Positions 20,358-25,824 of a DNA stretch of 37,564 bases are shown one piece after another. The stretch comes from a virus. The DNA is taken from the IMG/VR virus record IMGVR_UViG_3300028031_000003, positions 1 through 37,564 of that record, one strand, 5' to 3'. How positions within the stretch are numbered: position 1 is the first letter of the stretch; each line of letters begins with the position of its first letter. The translations under genes were made by a program, and so were the position numbers. Under the pieces are notes generated by a model, which made no database searches, was not told the origin of the DNA, and worked only from the letters and a program-made list of their open reading frames with translations.

Positions 20358-20434
20358 TGGCGCGCCTAGAGGGATTCGAACCCCCAGCCAATAGAGTAGA
20401 AATCTATTGCTTTATCCAATTAAGCTATAGGCGC
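20358..20434 (-). tRNA. tRNA-Arg (anticodon UCU), CCA encoded
   Basis: The reverse complement GCGCCTA-TA-GCTT-AATTGGATA-AAGC-A-ATAGA-TTTCTAC-TCTAT-TGGCT-GGGGG-TTCGAAT-CCCTC-TAGGCGC-G-CCA folds into a full cloverleaf of 77 nt. Confidence 0.9.
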
Positions 20435-22276: not shown

Positions 22277-22533
22277 GCCCTAACTTCGCCAAAATCAATA
22301 ATGTACACGTCTTTTCTTTGGTCTCCTTTTTTAGGCTGAGCACGCATGACAATCAAAGATTTTTCAGTTTTTTCCATTGAATTATATTCGTTATAATTTT
22401 TTGCCGCTTCTGCGAAGCCCTCGATTGTGTCACGAGTAAAAACCAAGTCATCAACGTCAACGTCAAGCCATTCATCAAGCTCTGAGAATTTTTCTGTTAT
22501 TTCTGAATCGGTTAGTTCAATTAGGTTTCTCAT
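22264..22533 (-). CDS. Acidic early protein (89 aa), first gene after promoter repeat copy 1
   Basis: MRNLIELTDSEITEKFSELDEWLDVDVDD.... The longer ORF (to 22680) would read through the promoter/UTR repeat, so I use the start at 22533. Confidence 0.55.
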   Translation of the reverse strand: MRNLIELTDSEITEKFSELDEWLDVDVDDLVFTRDTIEGFAEAAKNYNEYNSMEKTEKSLIVMRAQPKKGDQRKDVYIIDFGEVRACYS

Positions 22534-22542
22534 AATCTTTGC

Positions 22543-22604
22543 CCTGTTTGTTGTTTTGTTTAACTTGTAATAATTATACGGCCGTAATGTTGTTACGTCA
22601 ATAG
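22543..22604 (-). repeat. 62-bp exact repeat (promoter plus 5'UTR cassette), copy 1
   Basis: cctgtttgttgttttgtttaacttgtaataattatacggccgtaatgttgttacgtcaatag is identical to 24819..24880. Confidence 0.95.
22573..22601 (-). promoter_or_regulatory. Sigma-70-type promoter inside repeat copy 1 (TTGACG - 17 nt - TATAAT)
   Basis: The reverse complement reads TTGACGtaacaacattacggccgTATAAT, followed by the CA-rich leader ttacaagttaaacaaaacaacaaacaggg and ATG 22533. Confidence 0.7.
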
Positions 22605-24588: not shown

Positions 24589-24810
24589 TTATTTAAAATA
24601 AAGATTATTTATGTCTGATTCAAATTTATCTAAGCCTGATGCTCCGCTAATTGCATTTGCGCAAGATAATGCATAGCGTTTTTCAGGCATTTCTACCACT
24701 TCTCCATCTTTTTGATAAACAACTGTGCTTGATTCTGTTTGTTTAACAAATAATTCAGTTTCTGAATCATCAATAATAATGTTGTTATTTGTGTTTATTT
24801 GTAAAGTCAT
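24589..24810 (-). CDS. Hypothetical early protein (73 aa), first gene after promoter repeat copy 2
   Basis: The ATG lies 8 nt after the ACAGGAAAA end of the repeated leader. Confidence 0.55.
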   Translation of the reverse strand: MTLQINTNNNIIIDDSETELFVKQTESSTVVYQKDGEVVEMPEKRYALSCANAISGASGLDKFESDINNLYFK

Positions 24811-24818
24811 AATATTTT

Positions 24819-24880
24819 CCTGTTTGTTGTTTTGTTTAACTTGTAATAATTATACGGCCGTAATGTTGTTACGTCAATAG
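24819..24880 (-). repeat. 62-bp exact repeat (promoter plus 5'UTR cassette), copy 2
   Basis: Identical to 22543..22604. Confidence 0.95.
24849..24877 (-). promoter_or_regulatory. Sigma-70-type promoter inside repeat copy 2 (TTGACG - 17 nt - TATAAT)
   Basis: Same sequence as 22573..22601. Confidence 0.7.
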
Positions 24881-24957
24881 TTTATTGGTCTTACAGACGA
24901 ACGGTAGGAATAAATTATTAGTCTTTTTGTTTTTTGTGTTATATTGCCCAGCATAAT

Positions 24958-25066
24958 GCCGGGTTAGCTTTAATCGGTAAAAGCGGTGCTTTGTAGCTGA
25001 AAAGATTTTTTAAAAATCCAGCGCTAAAGCTCATATGATCAGTTCGAATCTGGTCACCCGGTGCCA
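24958..25066 (+). tRNA. Atypical 109-nt tRNA-like gene with an extra 22-29 nt in the anticodon arm (reads as Tyr-GUA with a 37/38 insertion, or exposes a UUA loop)
   Basis: It has an acceptor GCCGGGT/ACCCGGT followed by G-CCA, a D arm GCTT-TAATCGGTAA-AAGC and a T arm ATCAG-TTCGAAT-CTGGT. The stem GTGCT/AGCGC encloses ttgtagctgaaaaGATTTTttaAAAATCc. Confidence 0.5.
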
Positions 25067-25127
25067 ATTTTAATACGAGAAATATAATGGAATAGCTGAT
25101 CAATTTGCTTTAGTCAAGGACATCAAT

Positions 25128-25202
25128 AGGCCAGTAGCTCAAAGGTAGACCAAGGCACTAATAATGCCTTGGTTGCTGGTTCAAATCCGGCTTGGCCTAC
25201 CA
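25128..25202 (+). tRNA. tRNA-Ile-like with anticodon AAU (A34), CCA encoded
   Basis: AGGCCAG-TA-GCTC-AAAGGTA-GACC-A-AGGCA-CTAATAA-TGCCT-TGGTT-GCTGG-TTCAAAT-CCGGC-TTGGCCT-A-CCA. The acceptor, discriminator and T arm resemble bacterial tRNA-Ile(GAU). Confidence 0.75.
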
Positions 25203-25206
25203 GTTT

Positions 25207-25282
25207 GAGAGTTTAGTGTAGCGTTATTACACTGGTCTTCAAGACCAGAGAAAGTCGGGTTCAATTCCCGCTGATCTCACCA
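25207..25282 (+). tRNA. tRNA-like gene with anticodon UCA (opal-suppressor / Trp-UCA type); imperfect acceptor and D stems
   Basis: The anticodon arm CTGGT-CTTCAAG-ACCAG has U33 and A37 and resembles the tRNA-Trp arm. The T arm is (T)CGGG-TTCAATT-CCCG(C) and the 3' end is ...TGATCTC-A-CCA. Acceptor pairs 5 and 7 mismatch. Confidence 0.5.
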
Positions 25283-25326: not shown

Positions 25327-25728
25327 TTATTCTCCTGCTAATTTCTTAGCTTTTTTTAAAACTTTAATTAATTTATCAAAATCAGACCAATCGCAGGCCT
25401 TTATCTGGTTAATGTATATTCGGTTTTTATCCCAGTGCAGCATACTCTTTTTATTTTGATCAGAATAAGCAAATGAGTCATTTTTTCCGAAAACAAAGCC
25501 GCTGGCTAAAATCCGGTTTTTATCTTTCTTTTTTTCCTGAGAAGGGAACCACTCAAGCTTTATCTTTTTGTTGCTACCTTTTATTAATCGATGAATAAGC
25601 TTTGGCCCTGCATGAGCAGTTCCGTTGAAAACATTAGATAGACTCCCTCGTGAGGAGCCTATCTTTTTGGCAAACTCTGTTTTTTTATTGCTGGTGAGAG
25701 TGCACCAATACGCTTGTAATTTTGTCAT
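25327..25728 (-). CDS. HTH DNA-binding regulator (Cro/YdaS-like N-domain plus C-terminal domain); putative repressor
   Basis: KTEFAKKIGSSRGSLSNVFNGTAHAGPKLIHRLIKGSNKKIKLEWF is a helix-turn-helix pattern. It is the first gene of the minus-strand arm at the divergent control region. Confidence 0.6.
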   Translation of the reverse strand: MTKLQAYWCTLTSNKKTEFAKKIGSSRGSLSNVFNGTAHAGPKLIHRLIKGSNKKIKLEWFPSQEKKKDKNRILASGFVFGKNDSFAYSDQNKKSMLHWDKNRIYINQIKACDWSDFDKLIKVLKKAKKLAGE

Positions 25729-25734
25729 GCATTT

Positions 25735-25762
25735 ATTGTATATAATGAGAAAAATAAGTCAA
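25735..25762 (-). promoter_or_regulatory. Putative promoter for the regulator gene (TTGACT - 16 nt - TACAAT), only 6 nt from the ATG
   Basis: The reverse complement reads TTGACTtatttttctcattataTACAATaaatgcATG. Confidence 0.5.
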
Positions 25763-25795
25763 CTATTTTAGTGTTATACATTTACCTTAATTGTG

Positions 25796-25824
25796 TTGAC
25801 ATATTAAAATAGTAGGTCTATTAT
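25796..25824 (+). promoter_or_regulatory. Putative rightward promoter (TTGACA - 17 nt - TATTAT), 7 nt from ATG 25832
   Basis: TTGACAtattaaaatagtaggtcTATTATtcttgacATG. Confidence 0.6.

Follow-up and report, generated by a model that had tools for sequence, protein, structure and literature searches.

Oversized 'pseudo' transfer RNA (tRNA) genes with predicted introns are already on record in phages. The predicted tRNA introns of Lak megaphages were described as 'enigmatic', with no mechanism or splicing evidence known (Devoto et al. 2019, PMC6784885), and for phage-encoded tRNA-Tyr a decoy or supplement role has been proposed against Septu and retron-Eco7 (PMC13096335). Here we analyse a 109-nt tRNA-like gene at positions 24958-25066 (plus strand) of IMG/VR record IMGVR_UViG_3300028031_000003, whose 37,564 nt, hereafter the window, represent essentially the whole genome of a siphophage (~37.5 kb, 38% G+C). 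The gene combines intact tRNA ends with extra sequence in its anticodon region, and this extra sequence is predicted to fold into a single rod-like hairpin where the anticodon arm should be. The product of the gene is most likely an RNA that derives from a tRNA and does not decode, whether a crippled tRNA or a tRNA-like RNA.

The tRNA anatomy of the gene (Table 1) had largely been described in an earlier sequence-only reading of the window. The acceptor stem GCCGGGT/ACCCGGT (7 bp, G1-U72 included), the discriminator G followed by CCA, and the D arm are all present where that reading placed them, and the T arm ATCAG-TTCGAAT-CTGGT was confirmed at 25038-25054, with an extra C at 25055. Read with a 4-bp stem, the D arm is GCTT-TAATCGGTAA-AAGC with GG in its loop. 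The stem GTGCT (24986-24990)/AGCGC (25020-25024), enclosing 29 nt that include a palindrome, is likewise present in the sequence, and the D and T arms are separated by 53 nt (24985-25037) rather than by the 52 nt counted earlier. The gene thus displays the 7-bp acceptor stem, discriminator, CCA, T-Psi-C-type T loop and G18 G19 of the D arm that are expected of a tRNA; a canonical 5-bp stem with a 7-nt anticodon loop at the normal distance is what it lacks, the only 5-bp stem being the one that encloses 29 nt. The view that the locus derives from a tRNA, carries additional sequence in its anticodon arm and is unusual for a phage is supported.

Detection by standard tools depends on the settings used. 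ARAGORN at default and Rfam at the gathering score call three other tRNAs in the window (Arg-TCT, 'Ile-AAT' and a TCA tRNA) and do not call the gene at 24958-25066. With intron search and a lowered threshold, ARAGORN reports a tRNA-Tyr(gta) with a 22-nt intron, ctgaaaagattttttaaaaatc, the same as that proposed in the sequence-only reading. A permissive Infernal search of 221 nt with the Rfam tRNA model did return the covariance-model hit on which the tRNA claim had been made to depend (20.4 bits, E = 0.048), which falls short of the gathering score (29), and the locus gave no hint of any Rfam family besides tRNA. A tRNA-end test, defined as a T arm with a TTCRANN loop joined to a 7-bp acceptor stem and NCCA, matches this locus, two of the three accepted tRNAs and nothing else in the window. 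Since 300 Markov randomisations give a chance expectation of 0.007 hits per window for this test, the tRNA likeness of the gene is not due to chance. An assembly artefact was ruled out, as the locus is base-for-base identical in the window, in ENA assembly ERZ27262698 and in Logan assembly SRR8439430, which derives from another run.

Analysis of the predicted secondary structure reveals one clearly preferred fold, which takes up all of the extra sequence. The minimum-free-energy (MFE) fold (-34.1 kcal/mol; z = -3.2 against shuffles) retains the acceptor stem together with a D stem of 5 bp, whose 8-nt loop includes GG, and a T stem of 6 bp, the acceptor/T branch amounting to 13 bp (7+6), and it replaces the anticodon stem-loop with an irregular 47-nt hairpin, referred to below as the rod. 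The outer helix of the rod pairs GCUUUG (24988-24993) with UAAAGC (25025-25030) and leads through a 2x2 internal loop to a 4-bp helix, GCUG/CAGC (24996-24999/25019-25022), followed by an AAAA bulge (25000-25003) and, at the tip, by the 6-bp palindrome with its loop UUA, for a total of ~16 bp. Pair probabilities in the rod helices are mostly >0.9, falling to 0.58-0.64 for loop-adjacent pairs and 0.40 for the closing pair 24986/25032, and the central domain folded alone gives z = -2.4. All 35 predicted pairs are standard, 3 of them being G-U. By comparison, the 5-bp stem GTGCT/AGCGC that the sequence-only reading took for the anticodon stem has an ensemble pairing probability of ~1e-4, and the best fold retaining it is 5.6 kcal/mol worse than the MFE. 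The Infernal alignment also uses the rod register, in which GUGCU pairs with AGCUC (25028-25032) around a 41-nt 'loop', leaving a canonical 5-nt variable loop, AUAUG. The extra C that had been listed as an irregularity, C25055, is better read as part of a sixth T-stem pair with G25037 (probability 0.998). The same gene admits at least three mutually incompatible cloverleaf readings: one with anticodon GUA, a 22-nt insert and a 13-nt stemless variable region; one with a class I body and an insert of ~30 nt, leaving the loop UUGUAAA or UUGUUAA; and one of class II, in which the palindrome serves as a UUA anticodon arm.

Given that the 22 nt at 24997-25018 had been proposed as an intron at the canonical 37/38 position, the evidence for a defined splice register was examined. 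Deletion of 24997-25018 yields a tRNA-Tyr(GUA) at the default ARAGORN threshold, with an exon junction joining GGTGCTTTGTAG to CAGCGC. The same outcome is not peculiar to this segment: among the contiguous deletions tried in silico, 16 give ARAGORN-acceptable tRNAs (24997-25018 and 15 others), with nine anticodons among them (gta, gtt, gat, aat, tgt, tgc, ttc, atc and tta). The splice register is therefore arbitrary, and what ARAGORN picks up is the undamaged set of acceptor, D and T arms, not a particular splice register. Placement of the insert at 37/38 holds for one register, and Infernal picks another stem. A bulge-helix-bulge (BHB) motif, in which two 3-nt bulges surround a 4-bp helix, is absent from the predicted fold; the 4-bp helix of the rod is flanked by the 4-nt bulge and the 2x2 internal loop, cuts at those positions restore no 7-nt loop, and the anticodon is unpaired with the insert. 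The rod was also considered as a relaxed BHB and rejected. A group I intron is a ribozyme that splices itself and spans a few hundred nucleotides, with a P3-P9 core of ~200 nt or more. The insert measures 22-30 nt, and no Rfam Intron_gpI match was found at the locus at E up to 10. A Pfam and PHROGs scan of ~38 of the 55 open reading frames (ORFs) of the phage, many of them unannotated, recognised neither an RNA ligase, polynucleotide kinase or RtcB nor a splicing endonuclease. Moreover, the nominal splice sites fall within predicted helices. The spliced product, carrying G73, G1-U72 and G37, would have a variable region of 13 nt with no stem and one base too many where the T stem meets the acceptor, and would be a poor tRNA-Tyr for a bacterium, judged by the general identity rules of bacterial tRNA-Tyr (A73; see also PMC9976931). 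Among the JGI matches listed, ordinary bacterial tRNA-Tyr genes sharing the acceptor stem have A73, the loop CTGTAAA and a stemmed variable arm. With respect to a mobile miniature insertion, no second copy of the insert occurs in the window, and the 21-nt insert core has one IMG/VR match, a chance match in unrelated AT-rich DNA outside any tRNA.

Considering these findings together, we favour a crippled tRNA (pseudo-tRNA) within a cluster of aberrant tRNAs, with a probability of roughly 0.45. Its intact acceptor, D and T arms and CCA end would allow a transcript to be recognised and trimmed like a tRNA, with RNase P presumably acting at the 5' end; the extra sequence in the anticodon loop and variable region would cause the middle to fold as the 47-nt hairpin, displacing the normal 5-bp stem and 7-nt anticodon loop. 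With no anticodon at the distance from the elbow that the ribosome requires, the RNA would be translationally dead unless the insert were removed, for which no mechanism was seen. We infer expression, end processing and lack of decoding in this manner. A non-decoding RNA is favoured because the rod helices and the canonical arms mostly pair with P >0.9 as against ~1e-4 for the anticodon stem, because Infernal independently takes the rod register, because the product lacking the 22 nt is still abnormal for a bacterial tRNA-Tyr, and because no splicing enzyme was recognised among the ORFs scanned. The crippled form is favoured because both neighbouring tRNAs are aberrant and because degenerate tRNA-like elements (L018, L038, L050 and L219/L220, described below) occur in the terminase lineage. 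Several points weigh against this explanation. The acceptor, D and T stems hold zero mismatches, which is unexpected for an old pseudogene with several indels; the CCA is encoded, and a plausible extended -10 element lies a short way upstream. DNA without use tends to be lost from phages. The searches turned up no relatives, hence there is no measure of decay or constraint, and the fold is a prediction whose balance tRNA modifications or proteins could shift. Excision of the 22 nt (or alternatively of 30 nt at 24996-25025, leaving the loop TTGTAAA and a 5-nt variable loop), with ligation of the halves by host or unknown phage enzymes into a working GUA tRNA, is unlikely. It gains from the fact that removal of exactly 24997-25018 gives a default ARAGORN Tyr(gta) with U33 and a purine at 37, this being, by enumeration on the sequence with the GTGCT/AGCGC stem, the only register to keep both U33 and R37. 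The oversized Lak megaphage tRNA genes with unexplained predicted introns, including a Tyr(GTA) gene with 93 nt at 37/38 (PMC6784885), offer a precedent, as do the bacterial arrays described below with a 36-nt hairpin in an Ile(UAU)-like anticodon loop (L141/L122). The missing BHB and group I signatures, the unpaired anticodon, splice sites inside predicted helices, the failure to recognise a ligase or endonuclease among the ORFs scanned, an identity set wrong for bacterial TyrRS and the many other deletions that are equally 'valid' as tRNAs all speak against it, and the claim of an intron at 37/38 is not supported. That an insert of this size, neither group I nor BHB, is truly excised and the halves rejoined in a small phage of Gammaproteobacteria is distinctly unlikely, and would imply that a bacterial host and its phage have a so far undescribed pathway for tRNA splicing or repair.

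A tRNA-like non-coding RNA maintained by selection is a tentative alternative, possible rather than probable, in which the tRNA body would make the RNA stable, allow its processing by RNase P and supply a CCA end, the rod would be the functional part or would do no more than abolish decoding, and the whole would serve as a decoy or sponge for a tRNA binder (for instance a tRNA-targeting defence nuclease or an acceptor-end toxin) or as a regulator. The rod model removes every irregularity of the cloverleaf, as the 13-nt variable region becomes the outer helix and a 4-5-nt variable loop and the extra C becomes the sixth T-stem pair with no mismatch left, and the elbow contacts (G18 G19 and the TTCGAAT T loop) are retained. 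Phage tRNA-Tyr neutralises tRNA-Tyr-cutting Septu and retron-Eco7, possibly as a decoy (PMC13096335), and related phages hold other oversized tRNA-like elements in early intergenic regions (L219/L220 and L018). Set against this, a covariance model built on the rod fold gave no match across 1.27 Mb of related phage loci; much of the extra pairing could stem from the sequence itself, through GC/GC self-complementarity, the near-duplicate AGCGC/AGCTC and the palindrome; and no partner protein is identifiable. It is highly improbable that the element acts as DNA, with the AT-rich palindrome in a tRNA relic serving as a protein-binding or structural site of the early control region, such as an operator, an IHF-like site, an origin or a nick site. 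A perfect 15-bp palindrome is present, and the locus lies between divergent early promoters (24877-24849 leftward; the helix-turn-helix (HTH) gene and 25735-25824 rightward), but the palindrome is unique in the window with no similar operator copies, no integrase was found in the phage, and the intact acceptor, D and T arms with CCA are left unexplained; operator repeats were rejected on the uniqueness of the palindrome. The sequence-only reading had also noted that the tip hairpin shows a loop TTTTAAA with U33, anticodon UUA and A37, as in a tRNA reading UAA. An ochre suppressor of this kind is barely credible and was rejected. The tip loop does have U33 and A36-A37-A38, deletions of 15-18 nt at 24987-25004 lead ARAGORN to a 'tRNA-Stop(tta)' with a class II-like variable arm, and a tRNA with a TCA anticodon adjoins. 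Yet this loop stands on a 4-bp stem at the tip of the ~16-bp rod, atop ~11 extra base pairs, and any T-run/A-run palindrome makes such a loop by construction. By general tRNA geometry, an anticodon at the tip would be ~30 Angstrom too far from the elbow to decode, without reach to the decoding centre. Over half of the phage genes (29/55) end in TAA, and none is interrupted by in-frame stops.

The search for relatives of the gene extended over several collections. Seven exact or degenerate DNA patterns (aimed at the T arm with acceptor, at the D arm, at the anticodon arm allowing a gap of 0-30 nt, at the core of the insert and at the anticodon arm of each neighbouring tRNA) gave no match or chance matches in IMG/VR; the sole match in GTDB genomes was by chance, in a Paenibacillus coding region. 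In JGI metagenomes, an acceptor and T-loop pattern that proved too permissive returned, among the matches listed, ordinary tRNA-Tyr and tRNA-Ser genes. No homologue of the gene was found by blastn against INPHARED phages and PLSDB plasmids, and homology to bacterial tRNA-Tyr genes with the same acceptor or to T4-like tRNA-Leu was rejected, the resemblance being confined to the acceptor stem used for selection or to weak similarity of the 3' half (E = 0.8). A search of 5.8 billion proteins showed no homologue of the HTH neighbour, nor did IMG/VR, the flanking proteins gave no useful homologues, and contigs with the closest ERF (62-67% identity) and TerL (80-82%) homologues hold no copy of the tRNA cluster. 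The proposed comparison of insert presence and absence across related phages consequently found no relative of the gene in the collections searched. As no relatives were found, covariation, presence/absence alleles and decay are not assessable, and this is the main weakness of every conclusion on the nature of the gene.

Table 1. Features of the tRNA-like gene and of its surroundings in the window
Feature	Coordinates	Strand	Basis or remark
tRNA-like gene, whole, 109 nt	24958..25066	+	ARAGORN with introns and lowered threshold; Rfam tRNA 20.4 bits; tRNA-end test; fold
Acceptor stem, 5' strand GCCGGGT	24958..24964	+	pairs with 25056-25062; pair probabilities 0.63-1.0
D arm, 5-bp GCTTT/AAAGC (or 4 bp with U14), loop AATCGGTA with G18 G19	24967..24984	+	pair probabilities 0.91-0.97
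Predicted irregular 47-nt hairpin (rod) in place of anticodon stem-loop	24986..25032	+	MFE, centroid, Infernal register
22-nt insert ctgaaaagattttttaaaaatc; removal leaves loop TTGTAGC, anticodon GTA	24997..25018	+	ARAGORN; register not unique
Perfect 15-bp palindrome GATTTTTTAAAAATC, rod tip	25004..25018	+	unique in window
T arm, 6-bp GATCAG/CTGGTC, loop TTCGAAT	25037..25055	+	pair probabilities >=0.996
Acceptor 3' strand ACCCGGT, discriminator G25063 and encoded CCA	25056..25066	+	sequence, ARAGORN
Extended -10 promoter-like TGTTATATT	24937..24945	+	by eye; 12 nt upstream of tRNA-like gene
Sigma-70-like GTGCCA-16-TATAAT	25061..25088	+	overlaps gene 3' end; consensus match only
tRNA, ileX/ileZ-like, anticodon AAT (A34)	25128..25202	+	ARAGORN, Rfam; 55 bits
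tRNA, anticodon TCA, weak acceptor stem	25207..25282	+	ARAGORN, Rfam; 36 bits
tRNA-Arg(TCT), high-scoring	20358-20434	-	72.7 bits
Leftward early promoter	24877-24849	-	promoter scan
HTH gene	25327-25728	-	3' end bounds tRNA cluster
Rightward promoters	25735-25824		promoter scan

Three tRNA-type genes on one strand, probably a small tRNA operon of the early control region, lie between the leftward early promoter and the 3' end of the HTH gene; the tRNA-like gene opens the series, and the other two begin 61 nt downstream. The tRNA at 25128-25202 is well formed and resembles the ileX/ileZ tRNAs (CAU, lysidine) of Stx phages. The phage uses the ATA codon at 32 per 1000, equal to ATT, and an AUA-reading Ile tRNA would make sense; A34 should not read AUA unless deaminated to inosine. 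The tRNA at 25207-25282 has a Trp-like anticodon arm, 2-3 non-standard acceptor pairs and a D loop without GG, and would read UGA, for which an efficient suppressor would be costly because TGA ends 17 of the 55 phage genes. The tRNA-Arg(TCT) at 20358-20434 fits codon compensation, AGA being the main Arg codon of the phage (16.6 per 1000).

Beyond the tRNA cluster, the window encodes tape-measure, terminase, portal-region, Mu-F-like, scaffold and major-head structural genes together with an ERF/YqaJ recombination module and SSB, methyltransferase and endonuclease VII-like genes, and its TerL is 65-67% identical to TerL of Stenotrophomonas, Acinetobacter, Klebsiella and Pseudomonas siphophages. 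The phage uses the standard genetic code, as judged from long ORFs under table 11, the absence of genes split by in-frame stops, and stop usage (TAA 29, TGA 17 and TAG 9 across the 55 genes); stop-codon recoding was ruled out on the same long ORFs and stop counts. Protein annotation recognised no integrase in the phage, and an attP or integration-site relic was rejected on this ground. Upstream of the tRNA-like gene, TGTTATATT is a plausible extended -10 site that the promoter scan does not list, as it has no good -35 hexamer; the site at 25061-25088 could drive the two downstream tRNAs independently. A 75-nt direct repeat is found at 22530-22604 and 24807-24880, its copies being 96% identical and flanking ~2.2 kb of small early genes, and the first leftward gene starts within the right-hand copy, which also contains the strong leftward promoter TTGACG-17-TATAAT. 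Just upstream of the putative promoter of the tRNA-like gene, TGGTCTTACAGAC (24886-24898) resembles the anticodon arm of the TCA tRNA, TGGTCTTCAAGAC (25233-25245), a resemblance that may be due to chance or to a fragment left from another tRNA.

Aberrant tRNA-like elements were also observed in other phages and in bacteria. Two phages with TerL 82% identical to that of the window carry a 160-nt tRNA-like element (L219:2316-2476 and L220:3019-3179) in a G+C-rich 540-nt non-coding stretch upstream of a Rad52-type recombinase gene. This element comprises a 7-8-bp closing stem, a D-like hairpin, a ~100-nt central domain and a T arm, GCGGG-TTCGATT-CCCGC, which alone matches Rfam (models of transfer-messenger RNA (tmRNA), weakly); it has no CCA, and a T-run follows. 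Among IMG/VR relatives by TerL, aberrant tRNA-like genes lie 0.6-1.8 kb upstream of the terminase at L018:1348-1451, L038:9024-9103 and L050:4151-4234, in the first of which well-formed acceptor, D and T arms surround a 46-nt centre (Rfam tRNA 30.8 bits), the other two having acceptor and T arms and degenerate middles. In JGI soil or peat contigs, a tRNA-Ile(UAU)-like gene within tandem tRNA arrays (L141:436-545 and L122:777-886) contains a 36-nt G+C-rich hairpin after anticodon-loop nucleotide 32, at several positions of which the two contigs differ; minus the hairpin, the gene is canonical with the loop CTTATAA, and the L122 copy scores 43.7 bits with Rfam tRNA. The L141 contig is bacterial, its array lying next to purL/purF. 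In L122, a ~55-nt repeat (TCCTTCGCTAYGCTCAGGATTTCGCCTGCGGGC...GCCCGCAAAACGGCTCAAG) occurs at the variable-loop/T-stem boundary of two different tRNA genes (~245-330 and ~945-1005), and the L141 homologue of one of these (Ile-GAT, L141:561-636) is without it.

Comparison with described systems places the gene near several of them. As in Lak megaphages, a phage tRNA gene too long for bacterial finders becomes recognisable, as Tyr(GTA) nominally interrupted at 37/38, once an internal segment is removed; the Lak inserts, however, are much longer (93 nt for Tyr), are shared between cohorts by conservation and belong to genomes of >540 kb that use an alternative code, whereas here a 22-nt AT palindrome occurs in a 37.5-kb standard-code siphophage without relatives found. 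With the BHB introns of archaea and eukaryotes (PMC4090602) the gene shares a small insert, a nominal site one base 3' of the anticodon and a 4-bp helix with flanking irregularities, and it differs in the 4-nt bulge and 2x2 loop that form those flanks, in the anticodon unpaired with the insert, in the lack of a 7-nt loop after cutting, in the bacterial host and in the absence of a recognised EndA-type enzyme among the phage ORFs scanned. Group I introns likewise interrupt bacterial-type tRNA genes in the anticodon loop; the present insert of 22-30 nt has no catalytic core and no Rfam match. Were the insert to be spliced, this would be a new kind of bacterial tRNA processing and a small, tractable model for the tRNA 'introns' of megaphages, and RNA data showing excision would sharply raise the value of the find.

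Non-decoding RNAs that are virus-encoded or tRNA-adjacent include the tRNA-like RNAs of herpesvirus MHV68 and the stable RNAs C and D in the tRNA cluster of T4. A Rfam search of the locus gave no sequence or covariance-model similarity to known tRNA-like non-coding RNAs. In YrlA Y RNAs (PMC4201824) and the tRNA-like domain of tmRNA, as in the fold predicted here, the tRNA body is kept and the anticodon arm is exchanged for another helix; in YrlA, unlike the present gene, the acceptor is closed and the RNA termini lie at the distal tip of the rod, and tmRNA is far larger. The 13-bp acceptor/T branch and G73 recall tRNA-Sec and allo-tRNAs (PMC5389517), although the branch is not of the 8/5 or 9/4 type and the UCA anticodon, long variable arm and 6-bp D stem are missing. 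Should the gene be a crippled tRNA, it would call for caution in annotation, as intron-aware finders return a tidy 'tRNA-Tyr with intron' for a transcript that is most likely non-decoding. Counter-defence phage tRNA-Tyr (PMC13096335) is likewise a phage-encoded Tyr-like (GUA) gene with an unusual variable region, but a full, functional class II tRNA, whereas the present gene has a disrupted anticodon arm, G73 and no variable-arm stem; if it proved to be a tRNA mimic kept by selection, it would join the growing indications that phage tRNAs serve in counter-defence rather than in helping with codons. Relative to the oversized phage tRNA genes already on record, this locus differs in its very short palindromic insert, its small standard-code phage and its coherent predicted rod fold.

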